A stretch of DNA of 64,000 nt from the IMG/VR virus record IMGVR_UViG_3300042507_003741, positions 17,602-81,601 of that record; one strand, given 5' to 3'. The position numbers and the translations under genes are program-made. The notes below the pieces were generated by a model. It saw only the letters and a list, made by a program, of their open reading frames with translations, was not told where the DNA came from and ran no database searches. Shown here in pieces: positions 10,202 through 62,597 of the stretch (positions are counted from its first letter, which is position 1; the number at the start of each line of letters is the position of its first letter). The DNA comes from a virus.

Positions 10202-10358
10202 GGCCTCTACATGTGGCGAGTACGCTTCCGATTCTGTGGGCGTACATGCTGCTTGTAGGTGCTCCGTTTGAGGGGTTCGTACTTTGCCGGATGCGCAGCC
10301 GAGTTGAAAGTCGGCCGGGCTGTCCGATAAATCACCCCTCACATCAAGTGAGGCAACC

Positions 10359-11183
10359 ATGTCCAATAACCTCCCTGTCCTGGTGGAGCGATACCTCCGC
10401 TCCCGATCCGTCAGTCCTGGCTACGCCCGAAATGTCCGTGCCGTCTGCTTGGCCTGTCGCACCATGTCCGTCGATGCAATCAACACGTATCTGCAAAAAC
10501 GAATCGTCGAGGTGGCTTCGATTACCGCAGCGACCGAGCGAGCGATTCTCGTTGGCATCTGGAAGTGGGCCTACGAAACCGAAGTAGTGGATCGACTGCC
10601 ACGCGGAATAGTCAAGATCAAAATCGCCCGGCGTCCGACTCGGGCGTGGACTATAGAACAGTGCTGTACGGCCGTCAAGGGGACTTTCGCCCTCGCCGAA
10701 GAAGTGCGTCGGAAGCGGGTGACAGTCGGCCTTTTTCTGCGGTGCTGGATGCTGCTGGGGTACGAAACGGGCGCGAGGCACGGGGACTTGTGGGAGATGA
10801 GGCAAGAAGACTTCGACCTGGATGCCGGCACCGTCCGCTGGTCGCAGCACAAGACCGGCGAGCCGCACGTCAAGATCATGAGCCGGCCCTGCCTGCTGGC
10901 CGTCCAGGAGATGCTGGAGCGGTCGCCAGACGGTCGCGTGCTGGGTTGGGTGATGTCAAAGAAATCGGGTCATCGGCGGATGCGGAAGTACCTGCGTGAC
11001 ATGAAGTACGCGGGATCCTCCAAGTGGCTACGCCGCAGCGGGGCCACCCACATTGAGATGGAGCATCCTGGCAAGGGGCGGCTGCATCTTGGTCACAAGA
11101 CGCCTGGACTGGCCGAGCGGTGCTATATCGACTGGTCGCAGGTGCGCAGGGACATCCCGTGCGTGCCGTCGCTACTCAAATAG
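10359..11183 (+). CDS. tyrosine recombinase/integrase
   Basis: TGARHGDL (R), HKTG (K), KWLRRSGAT, LGHK, late Y; only convincing plus-strand gene of segment 1. Confidence 0.85.
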   Translation: MSNNLPVLVERYLRSRSVSPGYARNVRAVCLACRTMSVDAINTYLQKRIVEVASITAATERAILVGIWKWAYETEVVDRLPRGIVKIKIARRPTRAWTIEQCCTAVKGTFALAEEVRRKRVTVGLFLRCWMLLGYETGARHGDLWEMRQEDFDLDAGTVRWSQHKTGEPHVKIMSRPCLLAVQEMLERSPDGRVLGWVMSKKSGHRRMRKYLRDMKYAGSSKWLRRSGATHIEMEHPGKGRLHLGHKTPGLAERCYIDWSQVRRDIPCVPSLLK

Positions 11184-14100: not shown

Positions 14101-14660
14101 ATCGTGCGTCCAGTGGCCTCTAACGCCTTCTTGGTGCGTCTGGCGACGGATGGCAGGAGGTCGTCTGCCATCCCGGTCGAGATGGCCTTCCTGGTAAGGG
14201 CGGTCGGAGCCGTGTCGAGCAGGCTCCCGGTGGTGCCGGCCAACTTGGCCGCCGCCTTGCCGCCGGGCGTGAGCGCCTTCGCCGGCCCGGAGAGCAGGGC
14301 CAACGGATCGGTAAAGACTTCGGTTGCCAGCCCGCCTGCGAAGTTGAGCCAGTTGTCCTCCGGCCCAGCCAGCCCGGCCATCCGGTTCAGTTCCCGGCCC
14401 GTGACCCGCTCGCCCGCCTTTCCAGCAAGGGCACCACGCAGGTAGTCGCCGGGAGCCGCGAGGGCATCGCCGACTCGCGACAGCGTGCCGCCGGTTACGG
14501 CACCAATCTCGGCCAGAACGGAGTCTCGCTCCTGTGGCGTGACGACATCCCTCTCGACCGGCTCGTCAGCCAGCAAGGCGTCATCGAAAAGCGGGATGTA
14601 GCCTGCGGGTCGCTTGCGTTTCCGCTCGTCCTCAAACAGCCCGCCTTCAAAGAGGTTCAT
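11172..14660 (-). CDS. large internal virion (DNA ejection) protein
   Basis: ~1160 aa, end of structural operon; homologue of 50156-53794 (RVTGREL, NFAG.LA.EV..DP, VDYS..P.YS.Q). Confidence 0.65.
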   Translation of the reverse strand: MNLFEGGLFEDERKRKRPAGYIPLFDDALLADEPVERDVVTPQERDSVLAEIGAVTGGTLSRVGDALAAPGDYLRGALAGKAGERVTGRELNRMAGLAGPEDNWLNFAGGLATEVFTDPLALLSGPAKALTPGGKAAAKLAGTTGSLLDTAPTALTRKAISTGMADDLLPSVARRTKKALEATGRTISTFDPATVGRPLYGTRTARRAGTLDDLIKYADDPKAAEESARQLLGDAQLAQIRNQPLAKSFGLGLPMGDPLVVGDWLGKGFGDTFADALDSFGQAYRWSLPGRSLAAGFDARVGGKIDAEEQITNIANFQARKVGGGAATAEHTAQLSRLRQAHPEVFSPEGNERLGRYLEGAAARKPEDVQYVTSRPALKEYADWWASKRDTSLGERRELGLNGEPLTDKYGIDYLPRRADPALEMEARVNRKLGSELSFMTTDALRRTDAMSVPGGRQTIIDLSKDTNVSGPKRTLKTDEAAANYIRNKLNALVASGQPKVTMKKARRIARVLNALPDEVVQKMPLFGQHPTDMIGSYVRNTGEALGTGTTLLDSVATFAVDKPYNLVDTTGRGRHISLPTAIQRLGLKTYDDASSQVFAVPSKGTLSNITPQVGAAQQMRERLAKLLGKDADEINLNQFSIPEEHINRLTRAKDLYSTGEAAGAFMRGLDHYTQAWRGSILAWPSRAVRDLYSGAISNWLEGALDLDSVRAAKALVMEGPDSDKFRSTLASIPRYANDDGLAQFYADLSSTGLVSSGSVSDLSASVTGQRALDNIIGSDPISMASIGRELGKGWNTQDFLNWRSKRNPLAEQTNPLLRAGERMNSLTDGVNRLTGYIALLKQGYDPMAAAAAMKRAHVDYSSLSGMEKSLLKAVFPWYSYQSRIFREVLRQLAERPGGRYGQMIRATEAVQDEGEDTYIPSGLRSQFAFPIPEVFGGVPAPGTQTYLTDIDAPGFDQINMIETPGTIGGMASGTARQIAMQTHPLLRMGAEFAFGKDLFTNRPLSEATSSLDAIARAVSGNPYADVPTLPEKLIEAAPFVGRPLYVARSLLDDRGGQPLSHRIGKTGLNALSGIKIRDVAQQDALADAVRQIEESIDPYTREFQQTYIPEHLQPGVPQWALQRMAVSRALGRERREARKKVGEKKKPKKRKSDTSAISLFE

Positions 14661-16756
14661 TGTTGTGGTGCTGGGTAACCTGCCACGCCGCGAGCGAAGT
14701 TCGCAGGCCCGCCGATGACATAGTCCGGAGCGCCCCTGAGCGACTGACCGGCCGAGTACGCCCAACTGCCGCCTGCGGAGGCGTGCATCTTTTCCGCTTG
14801 GTCGGGGCTCAGTTTGAGCACGTCTCGCGCAAACGCCAAGAACGCCGGCTTGTCATTGACAAGCGCCCGCAAGTGCGCTTTGACTTCTCGGCTGTTTGGA
14901 TTGATGCCTGCTTGATGCTCCAAGACGATAGCCTGCACCCGCGCAGGGATTTGCGCTGGGTCCATTCCGGACTTTTGCAACACCAGCGTCAGGGCTGCGT
15001 CCCTCTGCTCCGGAGGCATCCTCAAGGCGTCCATGAACTGCGGCATCAGTTGTGACGGGAGGGTGCTGTCTTGCTGCGGCTCTTCCTGGCCGGCTTGGGC
15101 TCTCGCCTGCGCGGCAGCCAGAGCGGCAGCGTTTGCACGCTCACCCATCGCCAAGTCCATCGCCCGCTGGGCGCCACGCGGATTCCCGGCGATGTCATTT
15201 GCCGTCGCCAGCATGACGGGATCGCCTTGACGCACAGCGTCGATCAGCGAGCGGACCGCCATGCCAGGAGCAAGGTTCGGGTTGCGAAGGTCGCGCGTCA
15301 GGCTGAAGTTGGCCTGCCGATCACGCCACGTCTGGTTTTGCAGGTCCGTCAACTGGAACCGCATCTGCTCGTTGATCTCACGCATCTTCGTGAAACCGTC
15401 TGGCGAATTGACAAGCCCAACCAGCGCCTGCTTCTGCTCGGGCGACATCATGCGACCGTAGCGGGCGACGATAGTCCGGGCGAACTCCATCTTTCGCTCG
15501 GGACTCATCTTCGCCTCATTGTCGAGGCGGGCCTGTGCCATCTTCTCGGGATTCGCGGCATACCGAGTGCCGCCCATGGGCGTCCGGACGGTGTCGTACT
15601 TGGTCCCCAGCCGGTCGTGTCGCTCTTTCTCGCGAGCCACGTCAGCGGCCAGCAGCGCACGGTCTTCCGGCTTGGTGCCGTCGTACTGCGACACGTCGAT
15701 GCCGTACGCCTTGCCCATTTCGCGGTGCTGCTCAAAACTCCCCTCGCCGTAATACTCTGCCGCTCGCTTGGCATCTTCCAGGCGGTAGGCTTCTGGCGCC
15801 CGAGAGGACATCGAGCCGTCGGCGTTGAACGTGAACGTGCCGCCGTGAGCAGTCTGCGGCACCTCTGGCGTGTAGACATCGCGCGACATGCCCCTCATCT
15901 GCTCGGGCGTGTACACGCCGGGCTTGAGTCCCTCCGGCAGCGGCTTTCCGGCGGCGCGGCGGGCCTGCGCCAGCGGGCTGAGATCGCTGGGGGAGCCGTA
16001 CGCCGCACGCATGGCAGCCTCGCGGGCGGGAGGAGGCATGTCGCCGTACTTGAATCCGAGATAGTCCTCAAAACTCTCGCCGTGTGCGTGCGACCCGCTC
16101 TCAAACTGCTGACGAACCGCCGCCTTTTCTTGGGGCGACAGCCGGTCAAACACGTCCATGGAAGTGACCTGCTCCTCGCCGGGAAGCGTCCCAGACTCCG
16201 GAGGCAGATTCCATCCAGGCACCGGACTCTTTCCTTCGTATTTCGGAGCCTTGCTGTGTGCGGGCGGCACCGGCATGGCGTCCAGGCCGGTCTTGGGCGC
16301 GGGCACAGGAATGTCCATGTTCAAGACATCCGCCGGCGGCAGGCCCAGCGGGTTCGTCGGGTCGGTCGTGGCGGCAACAGCAGCGCCGGCGGCCTCCGTG
16401 CTTGGCGTCCATGAGTTGCCGCGTTCCCAGTTGCGGGTTGCCGCCGGAGCGGTGTTTGTCTTAGCCACTCTGGCAGTTGCGGTTGGGGCAGCCGTAGGCC
16501 GCGAGTACGGGCTGGGGTCCGGAATCGCGAGCGTCTCCTGCGGGGGCGCGCTCCCCTCTTCCGGCATCAGCAGCGGATCTGCGGCCTGCCGAGTTCGTGC
16601 AGTACGCTCTGCCGCCAACTGACGCTGGGCCGCTTGCAGTTCACGCACCCTGGACGCACGCTCGTCAGCGCGGCGAGCCTCACGCGCCAGATACTGACGC
16701 TTGAACATGTCGGCAAACCCGGCTTCGGCAATGGGCGCAGAGTCCGCCATCGTCAT
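14657..16756 (-). CDS. putative internal virion protein
   Basis: Ala/Gln-rich helical protein; syntenic with 53798-55447. Confidence 0.55.
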   Translation of the reverse strand: MTMADSAPIAEAGFADMFKRQYLAREARRADERASRVRELQAAQRQLAAERTARTRQAADPLLMPEEGSAPPQETLAIPDPSPYSRPTAAPTATARVAKTNTAPAATRNWERGNSWTPSTEAAGAAVAATTDPTNPLGLPPADVLNMDIPVPAPKTGLDAMPVPPAHSKAPKYEGKSPVPGWNLPPESGTLPGEEQVTSMDVFDRLSPQEKAAVRQQFESGSHAHGESFEDYLGFKYGDMPPPAREAAMRAAYGSPSDLSPLAQARRAAGKPLPEGLKPGVYTPEQMRGMSRDVYTPEVPQTAHGGTFTFNADGSMSSRAPEAYRLEDAKRAAEYYGEGSFEQHREMGKAYGIDVSQYDGTKPEDRALLAADVAREKERHDRLGTKYDTVRTPMGGTRYAANPEKMAQARLDNEAKMSPERKMEFARTIVARYGRMMSPEQKQALVGLVNSPDGFTKMREINEQMRFQLTDLQNQTWRDRQANFSLTRDLRNPNLAPGMAVRSLIDAVRQGDPVMLATANDIAGNPRGAQRAMDLAMGERANAAALAAAQARAQAGQEEPQQDSTLPSQLMPQFMDALRMPPEQRDAALTLVLQKSGMDPAQIPARVQAIVLEHQAGINPNSREVKAHLRALVNDKPAFLAFARDVLKLSPDQAEKMHASAGGSWAYSAGQSLRGAPDYVIGGPANFARGVAGYPAPQQ

Positions 16757-40441: not shown

Positions 40442-41098
40442 TCACCGTGTCTCCTTCAAGCCAGAAAGCACGCCGGGCTGCTGCTGTTGGGCGGCTCCAG
40501 CCCCGATCAGTGCAGGCACGGCCATGATGCGAACCGCATTCCGCAAGTGATGGTCGGGGAGGACAAACTCCCGGTCGTGATTGCGGGAACTTCCAGAGAA
40601 CGGCGTGTTGCGGACGTTGTATTGCGGCAACTCGTCGGCAGGCACGTCGATTCGGTAGATCGGCGCCTCCAGGTCGTTGTCGCCCACGTAGTAGTCCAGT
40701 TCGTGCGGGGCGTCTGTTGCCCACCGCCCTGCTGCGCCGGGCGGGTTGGGATCGAACTGATCCTGCATGGCATAGTCCCGCGAGCGCTTCCACTCGGCAT
40801 ACGGAACCTGCTGGCCCCACATGTTCACCGTTTCCGGCGGCTTGTAGTTGAGCGCGGTTTCGCCAACGCGATAGGTCCGCACGTAGCCCTCTGAGGGAGG
40901 CTCGGCGGCACCGATGCGGCGAGTCAGTTCATCGAACCGCTGCTGGTGCAGGGGGTTCCCTTTGTGGTATCCGCCCACAGATCGAGGCGGGGCAGGAACG
41001 GGTGCGGGCGGGGCTGGAGCGCGGACTTGCTCCGCCAACTCCGCCACCTTAGAGGCCCGCCCCAGACGGGCGGCAGCGAGCGCAGCGGGTGTTGCCAT
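40442..41098 (-). CDS. hypothetical protein, possible ADP-ribosyltransferase-like fold
   Basis: RTYRVG, GRWATD, YRIDVP, REFVLP spacing. Confidence 0.45.
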   Translation of the reverse strand: MATPAALAAARLGRASKVAELAEQVRAPAPPAPVPAPPRSVGGYHKGNPLHQQRFDELTRRIGAAEPPSEGYVRTYRVGETALNYKPPETVNMWGQQVPYAEWKRSRDYAMQDQFDPNPPGAAGRWATDAPHELDYYVGDNDLEAPIYRIDVPADELPQYNVRNTPFSGSSRNHDREFVLPDHHLRNAVRIMAVPALIGAGAAQQQQPGVLSGLKETR

Positions 41099-41113
41099 AG
41101 AAATCCCTCACGG

Positions 41114-41124
41114 GATTTATGGCC
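41114..41124 (-). promoter_or_regulatory. putative late-promoter motif GGCCATAAATC
   Basis: Upstream of head operon; flanking GTGAGGGAT shared with 58938 site. Confidence 0.55.
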
Positions 41125-41126
41125 GC

Positions 41127-41270
41127 CTACTTCGCCAACAGGTACAAACCCACGTTGGAGAAGGCGTACCCCAAGTAGGCGACCCCCATGCCGGGATTGC
41201 CCCGCCAGAACTGCTCGGCGGAGACGTAGGCGTAGATCAGCCCCGTCAGTGCTATCAGCCATCCGCTCAT
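41127..41270 (-). CDS. 47-aa membrane protein
   Basis: Hand translation MSGWLIALTGLIYAYVSAEQFWRGNPGMGVAYLGYAFSNVGLYLLAK. Confidence 0.6.
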   Translation of the reverse strand: MSGWLIALTGLIYAYVSAEQFWRGNPGMGVAYLGYAFSNVGLYLLAK

Positions 41271-41367
41271 TCGTCGTACGGGTAACCGTCCTCCGGGTCT
41301 TCGGTGTACGGGCCGGGCTCCGCGTCCTCATGGAACCAGGGGCGTACGTCGGGGTAGGTGGCTTGTG

Positions 41368-41694
41368 TCACTTTTCGACAGTTTCCGTGCCATCGCTCGG
41401 CGGGGCCGGGAGCGGCATCCAGTTAGTGATCCCGAATGAATCCACATCGTCATCGTCCATGCCGCAGAACCGCCACATCACCCCGTCATGCGATGCCATC
41501 TGAGCAAGGCGAATGTCTTTCGGAAACGCTCTTGTGACAGCCAAGACGGCGGCATGCACTTCCGGCAGCCGCTCCGTCACCGGAATCCAGCGCGGCACTT
41601 GCTCCTCCAACTCTTCGATCTCGGCGTGCATCCTCCGCTCCTCTGGCGTGCAGTCGCAGTTCATGGGCTTCTGGTCGCAGATCGGGCAATACAT
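41368..41694 (-). CDS. DUF551-like small phage protein
   Basis: RWIPVTERLPE..VL..ITNWMPLPAPP. Confidence 0.75.
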   Translation of the reverse strand: MYCPICDQKPMNCDCTPEERRMHAEIEELEEQVPRWIPVTERLPEVHAAVLAVTRAFPKDIRLAQMASHDGVMWRFCGMDDDDVDSFGITNWMPLPAPPSDGTETVEK

Positions 41695-41714
41695 CCTACT
41701 TCTCCTCTACGCTC

Positions 41715-41763
41715 ACAGAACCAAGCGATGCAGCGGACGAGACGCTGATCGCCAGCGTTCTCA
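41715..41763 (+). repeat. attC: attC site 1 (49 bp)
   Basis: ACAGAAC-CAAGC-GATGCAGC-GGACGAGAC-GCTGATC-GCCAGC-GTTCTCA: R'', 5-nt spacer, L'' with extra base, L', 6-nt spacer, R'. Confidence 0.85.
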
Positions 41764-42053
41764 CTCATCGACACTAACTGCGGCGCCTTCAACGGTCGGC
41801 TCATTGAGTTCATAGGCCGGAACATCAGCCTCCACCCACCGAATCTGTTTGTCGCCGTCGTTTCCTTCCATGCACTCATACGCAATGTTGGCGGCTTCGC
41901 GACCAGCGTTCTGCCAGCCGTTTGCGGAATAATTGCCATCCTCCGACACGCACACCGCTATGCGAACCCGAATCGTTTTTGCTTCGCTCATTGCCTGTCT
42001 CCTGTTCTTGTGAGAACCACGCGATGCAGCGGACGAGCCGCTGATCGCTGGCG
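41758..42053 (+). mobile_element. gene cassette A (296 bp)
   Basis: Start G/TTCTCAC is the reverse complement of own R'' GTGAGAAC. Confidence 0.8.
41761..41991 (-). CDS. cassette A hypothetical protein (76 aa)
   Basis: MSEAKTIRVRIAV...; AGGAG RBS; TGA lies in R' of attC1. Confidence 0.7.
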   Translation of the reverse strand: MSEAKTIRVRIAVCVSEDGNYSANGWQNAGREAANIAYECMEGNDGDKQIRWVEADVPAYELNEPTVEGAAVSVDE

Positions 42054-42059
42054 TTATGC
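42011..42059 (+). repeat. attC: attC site 2 (49 bp)
   Basis: TGAGAAC-CACGC-GATGCAGC-GGACGAGCC-GCTGATC-GCTGGC-GTTATGC. Confidence 0.9.
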
Positions 42060-42323
42060 GGTCGGGTACTTCTTCTGAAACTGCTCGTACGTCATCGCGT
42101 CCCCTTGGCCGCCGACGCCTGTTGCGATGAATGACCCGCGCGATACCCGGATGGATTTCACGCCCTTCAACTTCTTCCGGCCGGTGAACTCGCGGTATCT
42201 GATTGCTGACCAGCCCTTGCCTTGGCAGTGGATGCAGACCACAGCCTCCCCTTCGCCTTCGCACATGCCGCGATACAGGCCCGCCCCATGGCATTCGTCG
42301 CACTCACACTTGATGTCTGGCAT
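42054..42323 (-). CDS. cassette B protein with DnaJ-type Zn-finger repeats
   Basis: CDECHGAG, CIHCQGKG; GGAGG RBS; TAA formed by first three cassette bases. Confidence 0.75.
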   Translation of the reverse strand: MPDIKCECDECHGAGLYRGMCEGEGEAVVCIHCQGKGWSAIRYREFTGRKKLKGVKSIRVSRGSFIATGVGGQGDAMTYEQFQKKYPTA

Positions 42324-42392
42324 TTGTCCTCCTGAGTCAACCGCATAACCAGCGGATGAAGCGGACGGCGGGGCCGCCGCTGATCCTGCGTG
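42054..42392 (+). mobile_element. gene cassette B (339 bp)
   Basis: Start G/TTATGCGGT is the reverse complement of own ACCGCATAAC. Confidence 0.85.
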
Positions 42393-42398
42393 TTCTCA
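42343..42398 (+). repeat. attC: attC site 3 (56 bp)
   Basis: GCATAAC-CAGCG-GATGAAGC-GGACGGCGGGGCCGCC-GCTGATC-CTGCGT-GTTCTCA. Confidence 0.85.
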
Positions 42399-42704
42399 GC
42401 CCAGCCGTTGCAGTATCGATTCAACAGCCACCCTATGCGGCTCATACATGATCGTCGGAAGCATCCGACGGAGCGCCTCCCGCTCCGCGTCGGTGAGCGT
42501 GGGCTGCGGCTCGCGGTAGAGCGACTGCACTGCCATGTCGCCCGCAGCAACCATCTCTGCGTCAGGCCGGTGCAGAAAAAAGTCCGCGTGGTCAGTCCAC
42601 TCAACCATCCACGCCACCGGCTGAGAACCACGCGATGCAGCGGACATATCATCTACCTCGTCTGCCATGGTTGCTCCTGTGTTCGATGCCGCTGATCGCT
42701 GGCG
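42393..42704 (+). mobile_element. gene cassette C (312 bp)
   Basis: Start G/TTCTCAGCC is the reverse complement of own GGCTGAGAAC. Confidence 0.85.
42396..42668 (-). CDS. cassette C protein (PVAW / LTDAERE module)
   Basis: RBS AGGAG and ATG lie inside attC4 loop; stop in R' of attC3. Confidence 0.7.
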   Translation of the reverse strand: MADEVDDMSAASRGSQPVAWMVEWTDHADFFLHRPDAEMVAAGDMAVQSLYREPQPTLTDAEREALRRMLPTIMYEPHRVAVESILQRLG

Positions 42705-42710
42705 TTCTAA
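42622..42710 (+). repeat. attC: attC site 4 (89 bp)
   Basis: TGAGAAC-CACGC-GATGCAGC-(49 nt)-GCTGATC-GCTGGC-GTTCTAA; arms identical to attC2. Confidence 0.88.
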
Positions 42711-42940
42711 TTGGTCCGCTCAAGCAGGCCGTCGATCACGGCGGCGACCTCCACACTGTCGGCAAACCGCCCCGCGAAGTAGTCTTCTCGCACTCGCCGC
42801 AGCACCTTCCTCAGCGACTCCCGCTCCTCGTCGGTGGGCCGCAGGCGTGCGACCTCCGCCTCTAACTGCTGCACTCGCTCCATCGCCTGGATTAGTGCAT
42901 CCAGATCGTCAGGCATCATCGGCGGCACAAGATCACTCAT
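42707..42940 (-). CDS. small protein with TDEERE..GLLERT module
   Basis: AGGAG RBS; TAG stop in R' of attC4. Confidence 0.65.
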   Translation of the reverse strand: MSDLVPPMMPDDLDALIQAMERVQQLEAEVARLRPTDEERESLRKVLRRVREDYFAGRFADSVEVAAVIDGLLERTN

Positions 42941-42970
42941 GTCTGTCTCCTTTACGTTGAAATCACGCAA

Positions 42971-43201
42971 TCACTTCCTGTCGATCACCTTGCGTAGCGT
43001 GTCGGCATCCCGTCGCCGCTCGTCCCCCAGTTGCTCAAGCCTCTCGCGCAGAATGGAGTTCACGCCGCGCAGCCGCCATATCTCGTCTACCAGCGGATCG
43101 GCGCCGGTAGCCCAATGCAGCAGCCACGCCGATCCAATGAACGACGCCGGGATGAGTACGGCCAAGGAGAACCACGCATACCAAGGCATTTCGTTAGGCA
43201 T
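42971..43201 (-). CDS. small membrane protein
   Basis: Hydrophobic N-terminus plus coiled coil. Confidence 0.55.
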   Translation of the reverse strand: MPNEMPWYAWFSLAVLIPASFIGSAWLLHWATGADPLVDEIWRLRGVNSILRERLEQLGDERRRDADTLRKVIDRK

Positions 43202-43922
43202 TTGTTGTCCTCTCCAGAAGGCCGTCCAGCACCGCCGCTATCTCGTCGCACGCCACATCGCCAACGTCGGCGTAGGCGTCGCGTACTTCACGCAGGACGA
43301 ATCGCTCCGCGTCGGTCAGCGTGAACGGCGTCAGCGAGCAGTGAAGCGTAGTGCGGCCAACAACGTGGGGGCAGGTCTGCGGGGTGCGGTAGAGCGGGAC
43401 GACCTCCCCGTCGTTTTCGTCCGCTGCCGCGTCGGCGTGTTCGCGGTGCAGCGAAACCATCTGCCATTCGTCGGAGTGTGCCAGCCACGCCACCGGATCC
43501 TGTGTATTGTGCCCCCGCCCACCCGCCGCCTCGCCGGTGCCGGGCCGCGTAACGTCTAGGGGCCGCCCCTCGCCGCTTCCATCGCTGGAGGCCGGTGGCT
43601 GCGCTATCGCAGGCGAGGAGCCATCTGTCTCCACGCATGGTGGAGCAGTCTGATTGCCGGTGCCCAACACGGGTCGCGTCACGGGTTTATCAGTCCCGCC
43701 GCTGCCGCGTCCTTCAGACGCATGAACGCCTGTTGGCAACTGGACTCTCGCCGCCGGCGCGGCGTCATGTTCGGTTCGCTCCCGCTCGCGGAGCATGGCG
43801 TCGGCCCAGCGGTAGGCAGCCGTGAGTAGGTGTTCCCACTGCAATGCAGTTGGGTACTGATTGGCCTCGTCTGACAGCAGCCCGGTCAGGGCCGCAGCGG
43901 CGAAGTGGTCACGGTCTGTCAT
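43194..43922 (-). CDS. modular phage protein (RDHFAAAAL / PVAW / LTDAER modules)
   Basis: MTDRDHFAAAALTGLL..AY..ADAML; C-terminus related to 42396-42668 and 42707-42940. Confidence 0.65.
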   Translation of the reverse strand: MTDRDHFAAAALTGLLSDEANQYPTALQWEHLLTAAYRWADAMLRERERTEHDAAPAARVQLPTGVHASEGRGSGGTDKPVTRPVLGTGNQTAPPCVETDGSSPAIAQPPASSDGSGEGRPLDVTRPGTGEAAGGRGHNTQDPVAWLAHSDEWQMVSLHREHADAAADENDGEVVPLYRTPQTCPHVVGRTTLHCSLTPFTLTDAERFVLREVRDAYADVGDVACDEIAAVLDGLLERTTNA

Positions 43923-44146
43923 GTCTTGTCCTCCTCGTTGGCCCACAGCATTGCGGCCTTCTCGTCCCAGCAGTCAGCCCGTCCCATGTCGAACCAGTGC
44001 GGGAAATGTCGCAGCACAGCCCGCGCCTCTTGGCGAACCTCCGTGCGGATCCCCTTGATGCCGCCCTCCACATAGACGTTGGAGAGCCGCACCAGGAAGT
44101 CGCGGGCACGGAGGACCGCTAGCGTTCGTTCACACGGGAGGGTCAT
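43919..44146 (-). CDS. BPSL0761-like small protein
   Basis: MT.P.ERT.AVL..RDFL..VRQEAR..LRHFP. Confidence 0.65.
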   Translation of the reverse strand: MTLPCERTLAVLRARDFLVRLSNVYVEGGIKGIRTEVRQEARAVLRHFPHWFDMGRADCWDEKAAMLWANEEDKT

Positions 44147-47539: not shown

Positions 47540-48165
47540 TCCTCCTTGTTCTTCCAGACCCTGTTGAACTCCGACTCACAACGCTTGTAGACCTCCGGAG
47601 CCACGGCCTTTTCCTTGGCCCGCAGCCGGACGGTATCCAGATGCTTCTTCGCCGTGGCCTCGTCCTTGGCCTCTGCGATGGCCTTCTTGGCCTCGGCTTC
47701 GTACTGCATGGTCTTGGCGTGATTGGCAGGCTGTGCCTCTGCAATCGCCACGCTCTGCCCATCGTCATCCGCCTCGCCGCTGAACCCGCCAGCCAGGGCC
47801 ATGAGCAGCGTCCGCTTGGCGTAGGTCATGGCAGCCCCAAAGGACTGCATGTCGCTCTTGCCCATCAGCAACGGGGCGATGCCCGTGATGTACTCGCCCG
47901 ACAGGTGTCGCAGCGTGCCCATGACGATCCACTGACCGTTGACCACGCCCGGCCGGAAGTCCGGAAGAGCGATGCCGTTCTTCGTCAACGGTCCCCGCAA
48001 CGCCTCGCAGCACGCCGAGTAGGAGGCGAACTTGCTGCGAAAGTGCGGGTTGGCACTGTCGAACTTCACCACCGGGTAGTCGGCCTGGGCGGCTGCCAGG
48101 GCCTTGGTCAAATGGCCGGTCGCAGGCGAACTGCTCGGGCCCAAGATGTCGTTGTTGTCATTCAT
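47536..48165 (-). CDS. ERF-family single-strand annealing protein (second copy)
   Basis: NPHFRSKFAS, HLSGE, QSFGAAMTYAKR, DDDG. Confidence 0.88.
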   Translation of the reverse strand: MNDNNDILGPSSSPATGHLTKALAAAQADYPVVKFDSANPHFRSKFASYSACCEALRGPLTKNGIALPDFRPGVVNGQWIVMGTLRHLSGEYITGIAPLLMGKSDMQSFGAAMTYAKRTLLMALAGGFSGEADDDGQSVAIAEAQPANHAKTMQYEAEAKKAIAEAKDEATAKKHLDTVRLRAKEKAVAPEVYKRCESEFNRVWKNKEE

Positions 48166-49022
48166 ATGATCACCACCTCCTCCTGCTTGCCGCGGGCCCA
48201 ACGCGGGATCTCCATCTCCGTGATCTCGCCGTGATCAGCGGGCATGTAGATGCCGGTCGAACGACGCAGCCGAACCTCCTCCATCACGCTGACCAACCGC
48301 TGGCCAGCCTCCTCCACCAAGTCATCAGGCAGATGGAACACATGACACGCATAGGGCGGCATGGTCTGAACGAAGACGAACGGCATGCGGAACGGCTGGT
48401 AACCGACCTGTTCCGCACCGCGGCAGTACAGCCACTGCTGCTCCGCATAGCCGTAGTCAAAGACGCTGCGGTACAGCCGGTCCCAAGGAGCCGATGTGGT
48501 CTTGAGATCCCACCACAGTTCCGGGGTCACGCCGTCCGGACGCACCTTGAGAAGGTGTCCATGCTCGTCCTGCCAGAAGACTGACAACTGCGTCTCGGAG
48601 GTCTGGTCCATCAACGCTTTGGCGGCACTGTTGGCCTCCATGTTTTCGACCATCTTGCGATAGACCCAAGCCTGGTCGGCCGTACAGCAGATGCCCGTCT
48701 GGGCCGCCTCCCACTCCCGGTATGCCTTGGTGCTGCGGGAACCGTTTGCCCCCAGCACCTCATCCGGCGGGATGCAGACCAGGGAGTCGAAGGTCTTCCC
48801 GGCACACAGCCCCATGACGATCTCATCGAACTCCCCGCCACGCTTGGTGGCCGAGTTGCCCGTGAACAGGGGATAGCCCTGGTCCAGCCACTGCTGGGCC
48901 TCGCCGCCGCCCTTGAGGACAGCTAGCAGGAATGACCGGCTGTCGAACGCCTTGAGCGAGTGGTAGGCACTGCTCGCCATGCCGATGACCTTCACCGGCC
49001 CGTTAGAAACATCGATGTCCAT
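48162..49022 (-). CDS. RecE/DUF3799-like exonuclease (second copy)
   Basis: KVRPD, DLKTT, Y.Y..Q..Y. Confidence 0.85.
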   Translation of the reverse strand: MDIDVSNGPVKVIGMASSAYHSLKAFDSRSFLLAVLKGGGEAQQWLDQGYPLFTGNSATKRGGEFDEIVMGLCAGKTFDSLVCIPPDEVLGANGSRSTKAYREWEAAQTGICCTADQAWVYRKMVENMEANSAAKALMDQTSETQLSVFWQDEHGHLLKVRPDGVTPELWWDLKTTSAPWDRLYRSVFDYGYAEQQWLYCRGAEQVGYQPFRMPFVFVQTMPPYACHVFHLPDDLVEEAGQRLVSVMEEVRLRRSTGIYMPADHGEITEMEIPRWARGKQEEVVII

Positions 49023-49045
49023 ATGTACACCTCCGAGGAAAAAAA

Positions 49046-49093
49046 CAGCCCGTCCGTGGGCGACCGTCCGATCCTTCAGCCCTTCCGTGGGCG
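49046..49093 (-). promoter_or_regulatory. tandem 17-bp repeats forming ACGGA-loop hairpins (CsrA/RsmA-like sites)
   Basis: CGCCCACGGA(A/C)GGGCTG twice, then T7 and GGAGG RBS of the exonuclease. Confidence 0.45.
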
Positions 49094-49247
49094 GAGCCTC
49101 CTGAACGCTTTGCCAAACTGTCCGGCGACAAGAAGGCCGAGACAGAGTTCCATTTGGTGCAGCCAGACGAGGGCTGCGAGAACGGCCAGATAGACCGTCT
49201 CTAAGATTGGCTCAACTCGCTCAAGCAGTGCGAGGAGCGACGGGCCG

Positions 49248-49270
49248 CTAACCAACTGAGCTAGTTGCCC
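49248..49270 (-). other. tRNA 5'-end-like fragment, candidate att core
   Basis: GGGCAACTAGCTCAGTTGGTTAG resembles acceptor strand plus D arm; ~80 bp upstream of recombinase. Confidence 0.45.
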
Positions 49271-49351
49271 GAAGCTCTGGAAATACCCCTTATGCTGGGG
49301 CGCCCAACCGTGCGAGGCACCGCGGCAATTATCCCCGGCGGGAGATACACC

Positions 49352-50179
49352 ATGACTTTGCTGGAGCTTGCTCGCCTCTACCACAACCGCGTGGGAGGAT
49401 CCACAGGATACCTGGAGCAACTGGAGGTTTTCGTCAGGCGACTGGACTGGCAGGCCAAAGACTTGCATCCCGACCGCATCGACGCCTACCTGACGGACGC
49501 CCTGAAGCATCTTGCTCCCTCCACCGTTCGCAACCACAGGAAAATGCTGCGTTGTCTGCTGCATTTCGCCGCCTCCGAGCGACTTGTGGACGCCAGTATA
49601 CTCAGGCCACTCAGGCGTGTCAAGCAGATTCCCCCAAACCCGAGGGCGTGGAGCCATGCGGAGATTCGTTCGCTTCTGGCGGCAGCCGCGAATCTGGCTG
49701 GTGGGCGCAAATGCCCGCGAGCCACGCTGGCACGGGCGTGGATCCTGGTGGCTTACTCCACCGGCCTGCGTCTGGATGACTTGCTTTCGATCAGGCATGA
49801 CCAAATCCGTGGCCAACGTCTCTGCCCCAGTCAGCACAAGGTGGGATGGCCCCATGTCTGCTGGCTGGATGACAATGCCCTGGCAGCCATACGACAACTG
49901 CCGATCCTTGGGCCGCGTATCTTTGGCGACCTGATCTGCCGAGACAAGGTGATGGCCCTGATGCGGCAGATCCGAAAGGCTGCCGGACTGCCTGGCAGCA
50001 CTAAGTTTCTGCGGCGATCAGGGGCGACCTACTGCGAAATCGCCGGGAAAGACGCCACTGGACACTTAGGACATAGAAGCCCTGGCATGAAGGCGTACTA
50101 CGTGGACAGGCTCTTGCTGGCCGAGGAGAAGCGGCAGGAACCTACGGCGCCACCGCTAGAACTGGTTGAGAGCCCCTAG
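49352..50179 (+). CDS. tyrosine recombinase/integrase (second copy)
   Basis: STGLR..DL, HKVG, KFLRRSGAT, LGHR, YYVD; GGAGA RBS. Confidence 0.85.
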   Translation: MTLLELARLYHNRVGGSTGYLEQLEVFVRRLDWQAKDLHPDRIDAYLTDALKHLAPSTVRNHRKMLRCLLHFAASERLVDASILRPLRRVKQIPPNPRAWSHAEIRSLLAAAANLAGGRKCPRATLARAWILVAYSTGLRLDDLLSIRHDQIRGQRLCPSQHKVGWPHVCWLDDNALAAIRQLPILGPRIFGDLICRDKVMALMRQIRKAAGLPGSTKFLRRSGATYCEIAGKDATGHLGHRSPGMKAYYVDRLLLAEEKRQEPTAPPLELVESP

Positions 50180-53100
50180 CATCTCTAGCGGATCCGCGGC
50201 CATCTTCTTCTTCTCGCGGGCTCGCTTTGCCGCTTCGCTTTGGATGATCTTGTACAAGAGGTACAAGTCCTTCTGCTCCTTCGGCATGGCCCGCAGCACA
50301 TCCTCGGGGACCGTGATGTTCTCATAGGTCCGGACGCCGGGCGTTGTCTCCAGGATGCTGTTGAGCATGTCCCGAGCAGCCTGCCGCTTGGCCCGATCCT
50401 GGTCGATGTCCGTGAGCTTGGCACCAGCCAAGAGGTTCCATGCTGCCTTGGTGTACTTGTCTGCCGGGGCCAGACGGTCATCGGTGAACTGTCGGTACAT
50501 GCCGAGGGCACGGGTGCCGAACGGCACAAAGTTGGTGACCACCTGCTCCAGCGGTCGGCCGATCTCACCGAAGTCCCGCTCCAAGACCGAGTACAGGTCG
50601 GTGAGATCCCGTCCAGAATAGAGCTGCCGGTTGGTGAAATACTCAATCGGGGCTTTGATGATCGGGCTGGTCATGCCCAGCAGATTGGACCCGGTCTGGC
50701 GGATGGTGTCGGCAATCCGGGACGAGGTGGTGGCACCCACGCCGGGCGTGACGGTGTTGAAGAACGCCTCCCAGGGAGCGTCGATGCTCGTCAGGAACCG
50801 TTGCAGGTTGGGATTCCCCGAGCCCCACTCAGGCGGAAGCGGAATGGCAGCCGACCGCCGCAGATGCTCGGGAATGAAGTTGTCCTCGCTCGGCTCCGTG
50901 CCTCTGGTGACCGCACGGATCGACTGCCCCATCAGACCGCCGGGGCGATAGAGCGTGTTGTTGACGATGCTGGGGACAATGCCCTTTTGGAAACTATAGA
51001 AGGGCAGCGCCCGCTTCAGGCGGTTGCGCTCAAAGGATGTAAAAGCCTGTGGCGAATAGTCCACCTGGCTGAGACGCACCAAGTCGGCCGCCTCTCCGGG
51101 ATCGACGCCCTTGCGCAACTGATTCAGGAACACGCCGCCACGCAAGGCATCTTCCGACACCGATCCAACGGCGTCGTTCAGCACCAGGAACGGATTGCGG
51201 TTCCGAGTCGGCGCCCGGTCCAAGATTCCAACGCCACGCAGGCTGAAGAAATCGTTGGCAAAGTCTCCCCAGGAGCGGCTTGGATTTAAGAACGCCCGAC
51301 CTACGCTCTGGTCATTGCCAGCCCCCAGCCAGCCGCCGCGGATCTGCTGCTCGGGCAGGCCGCTGATATCGTCCAGGATGTTGCCGCCGCCGATGCGATT
51401 AGCCGCGGTCAGGTCTTGGAAGCGGGCGACACGCTGCGCGGGGGTTAGGCCCTGGAAGCCCGGGGCCCTGGCTAGCCGGCGGGCCACTGCGTCGGTGTTG
51501 CCCATCGACGCTCGCAGCGCGGCCCACCAGTCCAGCGGATTGAAGGCACCGAACGTAGCGGCGTTGAGCTGGCCAGAATAGGTATTGCGGGTGTGGAACG
51601 CTGGGCTGGCGAGGGCACCCACCTTAAAGGCGTTGGTGAACCCATCCAGCAGGCCGACCATCCCACGCTCGGCATCGCCAGCCTGCGAGGATTTGACCAC
51701 CGTCCGCATCTGCTCAACCAGCCGCTCGGGCACGGCAAGGTTGGTGATGTCGGCGCCGAACCTCTGCTGCCACACTTGCCGCAGGTTGTCAGGATCGAAC
51801 CCAAGGCGGCGAGCGGCATCGGTGAGTTGCACCATGCCATCCGCCAGCCCGTTTGGCCCGATAACAGCAGTGGCCGCTTCCAGCCGCGGGATCAGCCGCT
51901 CGGCATTTGCCACCACGCGGCTCTGGCCACGCTCATAGCGAGACAGGTTCGTCCAGCCCGGGGTGTCGAAGATGCCCGTCCCGGTCTGCGCAAACTGCTG
52001 GTCGGAGCCGCGCAGCAAATTGACGAGCTGGTCCTGCCTCCTCTGGAGCGACCGCGTGGCCTCGGCCATCATCTGCTGCTGGGCCGGTGGGGCGGCGTTT
52101 TGGTATGCAGCGGACGCCTGGAGGTTAGAGATATCCTCCCGAAACGGACGGGCGATCCCGAGTTGATCGAAGGCATCGTCCAGCAGGTCGCGGGCCGGGA
52201 TCTGGTCAGCGGCAATCAGGCGCCGCTGGAGATCGGCCGCATCGAACGGCAGGCCGGCAGGTGTTCCTGGTGCCGACTGGAGCGCCCGGCCACCCGTCAG
52301 CAGGCGGAAGGTTCGCTGTCCGCCGGGGATGTCGGTGTAGTCCTGGCGGCTGCGGCCGAAGTTGTCGGCCGTATCCAGCAGCGTCTGGCTGCGGCCCCAC
52401 GGCTTCTCCACGCGCCCCGTGGCATTGGGCCGCACGGGATCCATGAGTCGCTCAAACCACTTCAACTGCCGCGGGAAGAAACCAGTACCAGAAGAACCTT
52501 GCCAATCTCTGTCAGGCAGGCCAGAGGCGACGGCGTTTTGCCTCGCCTGCTGCACCGCATCCATGTACGTGTCCCGCACCCCGCGGAACTCGTCCACGTT
52601 CTCCAGCACCCAGTCGGCCACGGCATCGCCGCTGGTTCGTTGCATTGGTCCGTACACGCCCGCGGCAGACGGCACGGCAGACGATTCGACATAATCCACC
52701 AACGCACGCTGAACGTCGGTGCTGTTGAACCGACGCAGCGAGTCGGGGATCGCAGCCGGGACGTTGGCAGCCCCAGCGGCACGCATGCCAGCCGCCACCT
52801 CCTCGGCGTCCACTCCAAGCACTTCGCGGAGCTGCCGCTGACGAAGGAGTTCTCTCGCCTCATCCGCCCGCGAGGCGTTCATCTTGGCAATGCGAGAGTC
52901 CCACTGGAGGTCGGGATTCAGCGTTCCGCCTGACGGGGCGTGGAATCCGGCGTACAGCGCGTTGACCACCGGGGCGGTGTAGGGGTTTCGCTTGGACGCT
53001 TCGCCCAGGGCATCCAGGCCGGTGGCAAGCCGGTTTCCAAACTGCTCGCCAAAGACATCGGTGCTGACTCCGATGTTGGTGCCGGGGATCCTGACATCCA

Positions 53101-53794
53101 TGAGCCTGGCGGCGCTGCCTGTCAGATCGTTTGGATCGACGCCATATCGCCGCGCCTGCTGTTGCCAGCGAGCAAGCGCCTCAGCCCGCGCGGTTGGGTC
53201 CGCGATCTCGTCCAACGCCTGCGCTGGCGTGATGGACCGCATGTAGCTGCGCACGCCGCGGCCTGCCGGGCGCCCAGCGCCTGCCGCTGTCCCGGCCCAT
53301 GCCTGCTCTGCCGCGTTTCGTAGAAGGCCCGTCGCCTTCATGGCCTTGCCAGTCTGTGTCAAAGCCCCGCGGCCAAGGATGGACAGAGGGTTGGCCCAGG
53401 TGAATGGATCCAGAAGCACCTCGGCGGCGAGCGATCCGGCGAAGTTGCCCCACGTATCCTTGTTGCCGATCATGCCATACTGCCGCAGCAGTTCGCGGCC
53501 AGTGACACGCTCCTCAGAATCCCCAAGAAACGACAGCGGCTTACCCGCCAGCACGCCACGCACCAAAGCCCCAGGCGTATCGAACAACCACCCGGCAGTG
53601 GCTAGACCGGAAGACCCAACCTGTGCCAGGGAGTTGAGCAGGCCGCTCTTCTCCTCCTGCGGCATGAGGTCGGCAATAGTCGCCCGCCGACGCAGTTCTT
53701 CCTCGGGGTCATCGGAAGGAAGAAGCCCGAGCTTTGCCTGCTCTTGCAACAGGCCATACGGATCGTAGAGGTCGAAGAGTGGAGACTGGGCCAT
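50156..53794 (-). CDS. large internal virion protein (second copy)
   Basis: Homologue of 11172-14660. Confidence 0.65.
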   Translation of the reverse strand: MAQSPLFDLYDPYGLLQEQAKLGLLPSDDPEEELRRRATIADLMPQEEKSGLLNSLAQVGSSGLATAGWLFDTPGALVRGVLAGKPLSFLGDSEERVTGRELLRQYGMIGNKDTWGNFAGSLAAEVLLDPFTWANPLSILGRGALTQTGKAMKATGLLRNAAEQAWAGTAAGAGRPAGRGVRSYMRSITPAQALDEIADPTARAEALARWQQQARRYGVDPNDLTGSAARLMDVRIPGTNIGVSTDVFGEQFGNRLATGLDALGEASKRNPYTAPVVNALYAGFHAPSGGTLNPDLQWDSRIAKMNASRADEARELLRQRQLREVLGVDAEEVAAGMRAAGAANVPAAIPDSLRRFNSTDVQRALVDYVESSAVPSAAGVYGPMQRTSGDAVADWVLENVDEFRGVRDTYMDAVQQARQNAVASGLPDRDWQGSSGTGFFPRQLKWFERLMDPVRPNATGRVEKPWGRSQTLLDTADNFGRSRQDYTDIPGGQRTFRLLTGGRALQSAPGTPAGLPFDAADLQRRLIAADQIPARDLLDDAFDQLGIARPFREDISNLQASAAYQNAAPPAQQQMMAEATRSLQRRQDQLVNLLRGSDQQFAQTGTGIFDTPGWTNLSRYERGQSRVVANAERLIPRLEAATAVIGPNGLADGMVQLTDAARRLGFDPDNLRQVWQQRFGADITNLAVPERLVEQMRTVVKSSQAGDAERGMVGLLDGFTNAFKVGALASPAFHTRNTYSGQLNAATFGAFNPLDWWAALRASMGNTDAVARRLARAPGFQGLTPAQRVARFQDLTAANRIGGGNILDDISGLPEQQIRGGWLGAGNDQSVGRAFLNPSRSWGDFANDFFSLRGVGILDRAPTRNRNPFLVLNDAVGSVSEDALRGGVFLNQLRKGVDPGEAADLVRLSQVDYSPQAFTSFERNRLKRALPFYSFQKGIVPSIVNNTLYRPGGLMGQSIRAVTRGTEPSEDNFIPEHLRRSAAIPLPPEWGSGNPNLQRFLTSIDAPWEAFFNTVTPGVGATTSSRIADTIRQTGSNLLGMTSPIIKAPIEYFTNRQLYSGRDLTDLYSVLERDFGEIGRPLEQVVTNFVPFGTRALGMYRQFTDDRLAPADKYTKAAWNLLAGAKLTDIDQDRAKRQAARDMLNSILETTPGVRTYENITVPEDVLRAMPKEQKDLYLLYKIIQSEAAKRAREKKKMAADPLEMLGALNQF

Positions 53795-59704: not shown

Positions 59705-62328
59705 CAGCTTGCCCCCGCAACTGTCATGGAGTGGAGCTGCACGGTGCCCGTGGACTGCGTTCCAGACAGGGCAATCGCCACATGCCGATCACCACCGGCA
59801 CTCATCTCGTCCACTCGGCCGGACATGCTGACGCGGGCGTACCCCGTCGCCTGGCCAAGAGCGCTGCGGTCGGAGGCCATGTTAAGCGTGGCGACTGACG
59901 AGCCGGTAACGACAGTCACGCCATCCCCGCGGTCGGCGGCAACGGCATTGGTGCGAGCGACGGTGGAGTTGTTGTAGTGCAGGCCAATCGCCAGCGACTC
60001 AGGCGTCGGCGTGTACAGTATGCCCAGCGAACGGTTGCCCTTCTCGTCCACCAACGGACGCGGAGAGCTGCGATAGAGCCACGGCACGGCGGTAGTGCTA
60101 CCGGAAGTAGTGGCATCGACACGCCCGCCAGGCTGAAGGATTTTGCCTGCCTCGCCGCCGTACAGCACCGTCTGCCGCTGGCCAGCAACGGACGCAGCGG
60201 CATGCGGGAGCGCCTGCGGGAACGTCTCCTCCCACCACGCCTGCGTGGACAGCGAGTAGCACAGCGCCCGCTTGGGGTAGATCCCATCCGTGGACTGGCA
60301 GTAAAAGAACCGGATGACCCGCTCCTGCGGGCTGGCCTTCACATAGCAGTATTTGCGCTTGGTGAAGTCGATGATGCCGTCACGCCAGTAGTTGTCGATG
60401 GGGGCCGAGATGGCCTGCTCCTGTGACCCGTCGAAGGCGTAGACCCCATAGTCATCCGCAATAAACGCCACGCCCCCAAACACATCCCAGCACCGGGAGT
60501 TCATCGCCCCGCGGTAAGACACCAGCGTGATCGACGCATCGATGATCGGCTGACTGACATACTGCAAGCGGTATACATGCCGGTTCTGGGCAATCAGCAT
60601 GGATCCGCCGAAGGGAATCAACGCCACAATCGCATCGGAGTCGATGGCGTTTTCCTGCACCACCAGCTCGTTGGATTCGGGCACCGACTCGGGCTCGTCC
60701 ACCTCGGAGTAGTAGAGGCTGTTGGGCTTGCTGCCGGTGGTGTCCACGGCATACCAGGCCCGGTCCTGGAACATGCAGCCAACGGCCATGGTCTGCGGCG
60801 GCGGGTCGAACCGACGAGCGTTGACCTGGCCGCTGGGAAGGACAATCGGCATCAGGCCGTAGACGCTGCTGACGTTCGACGCAACCGTATTGCGGTCGGT
60901 GTCCAGCAGGTCCAGGTCCGTGAGGGTGTCCACGTAGGATGTGGTCGTAAACTCGCCTCCCACCTTGTCGATTCGGGCCACCCGGTACAGCACCACCGAC
61001 TGATCGGCGGTGGTCCGCCACAACTCAATCGCATGCACCCGGCTCTCCATGCCTTGGTTGTTCAGCGACCAGGTGAGCGACTGGAGGCCAGTGGTGGCAT
61101 CGATCTCCTTCAGTTCGGAGATGGAACTTGGGATCGGGCCGCCCTGAGACTCGGGCGTGTCATCCAGGTAGCGGATGCAGCACTGATAGATCCCTTTGAT
61201 AGTGGGGGCGACCACTGCAAGGGCCTTGGCGCTGGTGTCAGCAATGGCTGCCGTGGGCGGGAGTGAGTATCGACCGCCCGCCAACACCGTCACGCCAGTG
61301 ATCTGCCCGGCGGAGTTGATGGCGCAGGTCGCTGCCGCACCGCCACCCAGGTAGTCCTGCGGATGAGGGTAGAACGTGATGACGGGCGGAGACATATACC
61401 CCGTGCCAGAGTTTGCCACCGACACAGAGTGAACGGAATACTCTAGGATGGGCCTGGCCGACGCCTGCGTGGTCGCGCCTCCTCCGGTAAGCGAAACCGT
61501 CACTCCGGTGGCCGTGGCACCTGTCCCTCCCGCCAGAACATCGGCACCCACCACCACCTTGTCATCCGTGTCCACGCCAACAACAACATTGGCGCCCGTC
61601 AGGCCCTGGGTGTTGTGAAACGTGACCGTTGGTGCCCCGGTGTAGCCAGATCCGACAGAGAGGAACTCCAGGCCCACAAGGCTCCCTTGGACGTTGCAGG
61701 TAAACGCAGCGCTACTGCCCTGCCCGCCGACAAAAGACACCTGCGGGGCGGCCGTGTATCCCGTACCGCGGTCGGTTAGCCGCACGCCGCTGACCCGGCC
61801 GTTGGCGACCGTCACCACTGCCGCCGCTGACGTTGTCGCCCCGCCACCAGTAAACGCGGCCCCCGGGACGCTCGCGTAGCCATTGCCGCGGTCGATGACC
61901 TGCACTTCGGCAACGTAATACTTCTGCCCCGAGGTCGATCCGACAGGGGCGGCAAAGCTCGCCGGCTTAGAGATGCCCAGCGGTTCCAGGTATGGCGTCT
62001 CGCCGTCCCAGCGGAACCCACGGCCGTGGCCGTCCACGCCGTACATGTCATGCCGGCCTTTGAAGAACGTCACGGGCCGGGTGCCGGCGAACGACAGGAC
62101 GCTAGCGGTGGCTGCTGCGGCGCCGGCTGAAAACGAAACGGTCGGGGCCGAGGTGTATCCCGTGCCGGCGTTGGTGATGAGCACGCTCTGGACCATGGTG
62201 CCGGCCATCTGGGCGACCGCCGCGGCGCCAGTCCCGCCGCCACCGGAGATGGTCACGGAAGGCGCAGAGCCATAGCCGCTGCCGCCAGAGCCCACCGTCA
62301 CCTTGACCACCCCAGAACCAAGCTGCAT
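59704..62328 (-). CDS. tail hub/nozzle-like protein (second copy)
   Basis: [21 protein letters not shown]; GxGY repeats. Confidence 0.7.
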
Positions 62329-62597
62329 TAGACAGCCCCCTTGGCAACATAGATCCCGCCTGCGGCGTTCTGGTAGACCAAGTGGCCTGTGGTGCTGTGC
62401 TGAAAGTGAAACATCTGCACAACGGCCGTGGTGGATCCGGTGTGCGTGGCGAACGACACGTTGGTCATGCCGCTGCGGACAACGACAGACCCCGGCACCA
62501 GGGCTTGCAGATTGACCTGCGTGGCCGCCGCAGTCGCAGGCACAGAGTAGGGGCTGGCGTTAGTGACCAGACCCTTCCATGAGTCTATGGTGATCAT
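62328..62597 (-). CDS. small tail protein
   Basis: [11 protein letters not shown]; homologue of 28458-28826. Confidence 0.65.

Follow-up and report, generated by a model that had tools for sequence, protein, structure and literature searches.

The window analysed here comprises the last 64 kb of the 81.6-kb IMG/VR virus record IMGVR_UViG_3300042507_003741, which derives from an uncultured lake phage. The genes of the window lie nearly all on the minus strand, and its early, small-gene region carries an array of four attC recombination sites that enclose three complete gene cassettes, with the genes reading against the orientation of the sites. The model of the integron integrase IntI (TIGR02249) gave no match in the 81.6-kb record or in 9 other array-bearing viral records, 3 of these 10 searched records being rated 99-100% complete. 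Since no intI gene was found in the record, the array is probably an integrase-less integron cassette array (CALIN). The features of the locus are listed in Table 1.

Table 1. Sites, cassettes and genes of the array and its flanks. Bits and E values refer to the covariance model R1 unless another model is named; positions are those of the window.
Feature	Position	Strand	Length	Remarks
attC1	41715-41763	+	49 nt	Short type; GTT 41757-41759, crossover between 41757 and 41758; left box ends AAC; 68.0 bits, E 1.1e-18
attC2	42011-42059	+	49 nt	Short type; GTT 42053-42055; 72.0 bits, E 5.7e-20
attC3	42343-42398	+	56 nt	More diverged copy; GTT 42392-42394; 47.5 bits, E 3e-12
attC4	42622-42710	+	89 nt	Long type with 43-nt loop insert; GTT 42704-42706; 59.9 bits, E 3.7e-16
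Cassette A	41758-42053		296 nt	From the TT of the attC1 GTT through the G of the attC2 GTT
Cassette B	42054-42392		339 nt	Length given by the spacing of the repeats
Cassette C	42393-42704		312 nt	Length given by the spacing of the repeats
DUF551-family gene	41368-41694	-		Pfam DUF551, E 2.7e-10; just downstream (minus strand) of attC1
Gene A	41761-41991	-	76 aa	TGA at 41761-41763, inside the attC1 R' box
Gene B	42054-42323	-	89 aa	Cysteine-rich; TAA at 42054-42056
Gene C	42396-42668	-	90 aa	TGA at 42396-42398, in the attC3 R' box
Gene D	42707-42940	-	77 aa	TAG at 42707-42709, in the attC4 R' box

The sites were searched with R1, a covariance model built from 57 short repeat copies, which gave four strong matches only in the window, all of them on the plus strand. 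The next best match (E 0.38), at 62312-62373 in a gene junction, was rejected as an attC site: its outer boxes are perfectly complementary, the inner stem is absent, and it is probably a product of chance. A 17-nt arm pattern with up to 3 mismatches occurs 5 times in the window, against 0.38 matches expected. On the plus strand, each site has NNNNAAC and, after 5 nt of spacer, an inner arm that includes one extra base; a loop whose length varies widely, the partner of this arm, a 6-nt spacer, and GTTNNNN follow in that order. The unequal spacers and the additional base of the left inner arm (L'') had been noticed in the initial annotation, and both are seen in an alignment of 57 short sites and in the folds, with 5 unpaired nt between R'' and L'' and 6 between L' and R'. 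This 5/6 spacing is canonical for attC and was reportedly set out by Stokes in 1997. The inner stem shows compensatory changes in the same alignment, and attC1 folds as a hairpin on either strand. A scan of positions 41000-43500 against Rfam (E up to 1) gave no match, and neither did a blastn search of 7 kb around the array in a phage GenBank collection.

Related viral loci were obtained by an exact scan of viral contigs with the 17-nt arm pattern, which returned at least 118 loci, about one third of them being chance matches inside genes. The phage statistics given below cover, among the matches listed, 73 related viral loci and the window, together 74 sources. In these, R1 detected 221 non-overlapping sites, on one strand only in each locus. 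The AAC triplet was at its expected model position in 214 of the 221 sites and GTT in 216, and both triplets are present in the four sites of the window. The related sites are from 49 to about 91 nt long.

In integrons the crossover takes place between the G and the TT of the R' box; the bases after GTT belong to the next cassette, and the variable ones among them pair with the R'' box of that cassette. We compared the 4 nt after GTT with the 4 nt before AAC in 138 unique adjacent site pairs. A perfect reverse complement was found with the next site in 100 pairs and with the own site in 24, while 1000 shuffles gave a mean of 28.5 matching pairs and a maximum of 43. When the pairs were restricted to those no more than 450 nt apart, the next site matched in 87/106 and the own site in 19/106. 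Among the 118 informative pairs, 83 matched the next site only and 7 the own site only. The three cassettes of the window all obey this rule. In cassette B, the 6 nt after the attC2 GTT are, without exception, the reverse complement of the 6 nt before the attC3 AAC; in cassette C, the match between the bases after the attC3 GTT and the attC4 box is also 6/6; and in cassette A the 4 nt after GTT match the attC2 box, with 5/6 of the compared positions matching. Such a boundary match is the signature of an integron cassette and, because the variable half of the right box matches the left box of the next site, the crossover is placed at G|TT on the plus strand. The signature is independent of the order of assembly, since it links both ends of a single cassette body, and for the same reason assembly errors across the repeats cannot create it.

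The content of the arrays was also compared. The 139 cassette proteins fall into 75 clusters, and the orders differ between arrays. One array (L056) holds the same cassette twice, the two copies being identical at 311/324 positions from G|TT onward, and the 60 nt preceding the G at just 31/60. Contigs from four lake-water runs show breaks at attC sites with other sequence beyond them, and loose contig ends start directly after 42055 in three of the runs. These breaks show mosaicism of the population and not the crossover point, which they cannot place because the attC cores are near-identical between cassettes. Among the contigs of the four runs no clean deletion of a cassette was found; in the apparent skips, either the sides measured 19-30 nt or the sequence that separates them was unknown.

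According to the initial annotation, four consecutive minus-strand genes stop inside R', and their ends at 41761, 42054, 42396 and 42707 were confirmed exactly. The four stops lie inside the 7-nt GTTNNNN boxes and, relative to the G|TT junction, on the side of the cassette. The TAA of gene B constitutes the first three bases of cassette B and takes the AA from the conserved AAC. The bottom-strand A|C cut has all four stops on its 5' side; therefore each stop remains with its own cassette, as had been claimed. The position of the stop was then tabulated across the related phages. Of the 109 cassettes with a longer minus-strand open reading frame (ORF), 60 have the stop of this strand within the box, at +1 to +4 counted from the G of GTT, which is more than chance, and another 38 have it at +6 to +10. 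Regarding mere content, a stop is present in 128/201 R' boxes and in 110/197 R'' boxes, versus about 33% expected. Stop content was rejected as a test of the strand, being symmetric by construction (the R'' box of the top strand is the same sequence). The telling point is that real genes use the stop of the box in frame, not the stop content alone.

Considering the geometry of the sites, in the cited passages of Nivina 2016 (PMC5027507) the bottom strand is the one that carries AAC in R' and is cut there, and the extrahelical bases sit in the arm opposite that AAC. The minus strand has both features, with its extra base on the arm opposite the AAC arm, as the geometry of a bottom strand requires; therefore, the plus strand is the top strand. 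This assignment, already made in the initial annotation, is now backed by three independent features: the crossover box, the geometry of the extra base, and the bacterial arrays described below.

With the strands so named, 109 of 136 phage cassettes had their longer ORF on the bottom strand and 27 had it on the top strand. The longest ORF was rejected as the sole test of orientation, and because this measure is noisy at 63% GC, a comparison of both strands with Pfam was added. The 136 longest bottom-strand ORFs included matches to DUF551 (20), Dam (2), C5 methylase (1), N6/N4 methylase (1), and HNH (1); the 101 longest top-strand ORFs of the phage cassettes gave no Pfam family match. By a crude measure, 55 of 66 loci have most of their long flanking ORFs on the bottom strand; the helicase and the DUF551 gene of the window are both minus-strand genes. 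The inversion of cassette ORFs with respect to attC, which the initial annotation had put forward for this locus as a mirror-image cassette grammar, is thus real both in the window and in the related loci, and it recurs in at least 73 of the latter.

On the mRNA-like strand, a phage cassette reads as attC, ribosome-binding site, ORF, and a stop in the RYYYAA half-box. The long type of attC has AGGAG and ATG in its loop, and the ribosome-binding site and the ATG of gene C sit in the loop of its own attC4. A start was predicted within attC in 79/139 cassettes, which is an upper bound given that the caller picks the most upstream start. Besides, the attC arm encodes an N-terminal peptide of about 15 aa that is common to unrelated cassette proteins (clusters 0, 1, 3, 5, 7, and 9). 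DNA methyltransferases (Dam, C5, and N6/N4) and an HNH nuclease are part of the cargo of the reversed cassettes, which would suit anti-restriction or accessory functions.

Bacterial loci were searched with a 19-base left-arm pattern, which gave 101 loci in the genome collection, mostly in metagenome-assembled genomes (MAGs) of Planctomycetota (Pirellulales, Planctomycetia) from lakes. In the 80 loci examined with R1 there were 133 sites, forming arrays with sites of about 88 nt and the same core as in the phages. An integron integrase above the TIGR02249 cut-off (389-465 bits) was present in 4 of 5 MAGs tested. In one of the loci (L163), intI is located about 1.65 kb upstream of the array on the strand that is the attC top strand, an arrangement that corresponds to the layout named "inverted integrase" in Cury 2016 (PMC4889954). 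Taking into account that a Planctomycetes-specific attC model was built in Ghaly 2021 (PMC8352920), an attC type typical of the phylum is expected. The phage sites belong to the attC family of the chromosomal integrons of Planctomycetota, and the phage host is probably a member of this phylum.

The bacterial cassettes of this attC family are canonical, with their genes on the top strand. The top-strand ORF was longer in 45 of 66 pairs, and in 43 of 56 when the phage-like contigs L130, L141, L142, and L152 were left out. Among the 10 longest top-strand ORFs there were 6 Pfam matches (RTX repeats, DUF2961, ankyrin, DKNYY, DinB_2, and FMN_bind_2), and among the 10 longest bottom-strand ORFs of the same arrays there was none. 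The stops of the bacterial cassettes cluster in R'' or just beyond it.

Some bacterial loci deserve separate mention. The four phage-like contigs are short MAG contigs with phage-type 49-nt sites and bottom-strand genes, and they look like binned phage; L142 is labelled Cyanobium. One cassette of 606 nt is found in three MAGs (L169, L196, and L197) and has a bottom-strand ORF of 135 aa, with no match in Pfam, whose stop is placed at +9 relative to the G. This cassette may be a reversed one within a bacterial array. Near the high end of L157 (G001:C6:401832-402359), at about 100 nt from the nearest attC site, there is an IntI fragment that covers model positions 140-315 only, in an open frame of 183 aa, and it may be a truncated integrase gene.

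The simplest reading, and a probable one, is that a host IntI acts in trans on the phage arrays, where recombination would still be ongoing. The integron integrase supplied by the host would fold the bottom strand, which is here the coding strand, and would cut AAC in R' at its A|C step. Each gene would then leave together with its complete stop codon and the attC in front of it, and in cassette C the departing attC would also carry the ribosome-binding site and the start codon. It is plausible that the reversal serves to keep the genes co-oriented with the one-directional transcription of the phage, and also plausible that it serves to keep the stop after shuffling. Separation from the host cassette pool at the level of expression is another possible reason.

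Several points weigh against this reading. Regarding the strand, the bottom-strand extrahelical base is C, and in the best-studied attC sites it is G, the base which is extra on the plus strand here. The predicted folding energies of the two strands differ by 0.2-0.7 kcal/mol in no consistent direction and do not tell the strands apart, so folding energy was dropped as a discriminator. Both facts would suit a wrong strand assignment, in which the minus strand is the top strand and the cassettes are ordinary. Nor was the stability bias towards the bottom strand, described in the cited passages of Nivina 2016 (PMC5027507), seen here. A wrong assignment is nevertheless largely refuted and hardly credible, considering that the crossover falls in the right-hand box of the plus strand and that the extra base of this strand lies on the AAC arm, which is the geometry given for a top strand in the same source. 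In the bacterial arrays, moreover, that orientation carries the genes supported by Pfam and follows IntI, and the contrast between phages and bacteria holds whatever the strands are named.

As to the enzyme, Pfam Phage_integrase was above its cut-off in 5 of 5 array-bearing viral records tested, twice in the record of the window, and none of the 10 viral records has IntI. It could be that a short tyrosine recombinase of the phage, not the integron integrase of the host, works the sites. The candidates in the window are encoded at 10359-11183 and 49265-50179, both on the plus strand, opposite to nearly all genes, and are 29% identical to each other. We regard their participation as unlikely. 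Neither of them matched TIGR02249 at E 0.001, whereas ordinary recombinases of control genomes do match it, and their NCBIfam matches were weak, Xer-like, and far below the cut-offs. They are located at least 7 kb from the array, temperate phages carry integrases anyway, and in bacteria the site family adjoins true IntI.

The phage sites are also much more uniform in sequence than typical attC in the 57-site alignment, and this uniformity could also reflect a second role at the RNA level. By such an account the attC hairpins would be fossils whose present function is chiefly in RNA or translation within the early operon (for instance as 5' leaders, as sites of processing, or as a ribosome-binding site and start codon in portable form), and the cassettes would be immobile. 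It is favoured by the very high conservation across phages, by the ribosome-binding site and ATG that the long type holds in its loop, by the peptide that attC contributes to different protein families, and by the number of starts predicted inside attC (79/139, as an upper bound). The scans found neither a promoter-like site nor a minus-strand terminator: no sigma-70-like site was detected, and the 4 terminator-like matches were all on the plus strand and no more than in shuffles. The immobility of the cassettes is set against the boundary signature, intact in 100/138 pairs, the very diverse content and variable order of the arrays, and the duplicated cassette of L056, which is bounded exactly at G|TT. 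We consider it quite improbable that these are mere fossils, and the role in RNA and the role in recombination are not mutually exclusive.

Further points against recombination by a host integrase are that neither neighbour is matched in 28 of the 118 informative pairs, that the order of assembly across the 49-nt repeats is uncertain, and that the host assignment comes from MAG bins, which can hold mis-binned phage contigs. It may also be that two related phages are combined in the record, as a chimera or in tandem: the window contains two diverged syntenic blocks (9380-14765 and 48162-53794) about 39 kb apart, each of them with an exonuclease-like gene, a tyrosine recombinase on the plus strand, and a protein some 1200 aa long. 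The action of IntI, the choice of strand, and expression are all conclusions that we infer.

In the usual description, an integron cassette holds a promoterless gene that reads in the direction of its own attC, and the choice of the bottom strand by the integrase has been explained as keeping the orientation of the cassette gene. The superintegrons of Vibrio contain scattered single cassettes in reverse orientation, mostly toxin-antitoxin (TA) cassettes with their own promoters. The phage cassettes resemble them in that the gene is on the bottom strand of attC; nevertheless, the Vibrio cases are exceptions in a canonical array, whereas the phage arrays are reversed essentially throughout and are promoterless. 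The orientation of TA in an array is mentioned in a figure legend of Richard 2024 (PMC13108822).

CALINs are already known in phages. Qi 2023 (PMC9892861) reports 17 of them, with 5 of 6 phage attC sites tested being recombined by IntI1, and proposes that bacterial IntI acts on them in trans; the cassettes of two virulent phages are there oriented as in typical bacterial arrays. The arrays described here are like those in that attC sites occur in phages in the absence of IntI and with DNA methyltransferase cargo, and they differ in that a single attC family extends over at least 73 viral loci with bottom-strand genes. A systematic reversal of the genes is not described in section 3.4 of that article; its supplementary tables might list orientations. 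With the sedentary chromosomal integrons of Planctomycetota (Cury 2016, PMC4889954; Ghaly 2021, PMC8352920), the phage arrays share the attC core, the spacer lengths, the extra base, and the boundary signature. IntI is present in the bacterial arrays, whose sites are about 88 nt long and whose top-strand genes stop in or just past R'', whereas the phage arrays lack IntI and have sites of 49 nt or about 89 nt, the latter with ribosome-binding site and ATG in the loop, and bottom-strand genes. In the literature searched, supplements aside, no description of systematically reversed cassettes was found. What appears to be new is therefore the systematic reversal across the phage cassette pool, of which we are highly confident as regards structure and moderately so as regards mechanism.

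The existence of this back-to-front pool in phages shows that the attC/integrase system does not impose the orientation of the gene, and it provides a natural test of strand selection in a case where the recombined strand is the coding one. It also bears on the birth of cassettes, on the diversification of accessory and anti-restriction genes by phages, and on the passage of genes between phages and integrons. We propose tentatively, as a possibility that falls somewhat short of an even chance, that the phages of Planctomycetota keep a large mirror-image pool of cassettes which is shuffled by the integrase of the host. If so, the cassettes of host and phage would share the recombination machinery and would stay silent in each other's arrays, and attC would be a portable 5' module that gives a ribosome-binding site, a start codon, and a short N-terminal peptide. 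In this scenario, the non-template strand of a one-directional phage genome, probably also its lagging-strand template, would be the recombinogenic one, with cassette turnover coupled to both transcription and replication. Cassettes could moreover be created with attC on either side of the gene, which bears on the unsolved question of their origin.

The two ends of the array in the window differ. On the right, gene D is the flank into which the array inserted, at the AAC directly behind its stop. Gene D was read as flank because no attC follows on its right, where we found no ATTAGAAC, no TAGAAC, and no further R1 match; the TAG-AAC located where gene D ends completes the attC4 box. Insertion of cassettes at plain GTT sites of genomes (attC x attG) is described in the preprint of Loot et al. 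(10.1101/2022.09.11.507474). The right end of the array, which abuts the AAC after the stop of gene D, is alike and would be as expected from such an insertion, with the difference that the window holds an array of several cassettes. On the left, the DUF551 gene looks like a cassette that has lost its far (left) end. It was read in this way because the half-site GTTCTGT, expected for the attC1 box, is absent to its left; none exists between 38 and 47 kb. In contigs from other lake runs, an attC box is joined directly to the 3' part of the DUF551 gene.

Regarding the products of the cassettes, gene A had no family match in Pfam, PHROGs, or NCBIfam, and the family scans of gene B gave weak, sub-threshold matches of zinc-ribbon type only. 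Gene C belongs to cluster 0, the largest cluster of cassette proteins (36/139 proteins, in 25 loci). A C-terminal motif, LTDxER...LLER, is common to gene C, which is in a cassette, and to gene D and the gene at 43194-43946, both outside the cassettes. The family defined by this motif is the one that forms the largest cassette cluster of the related phages.

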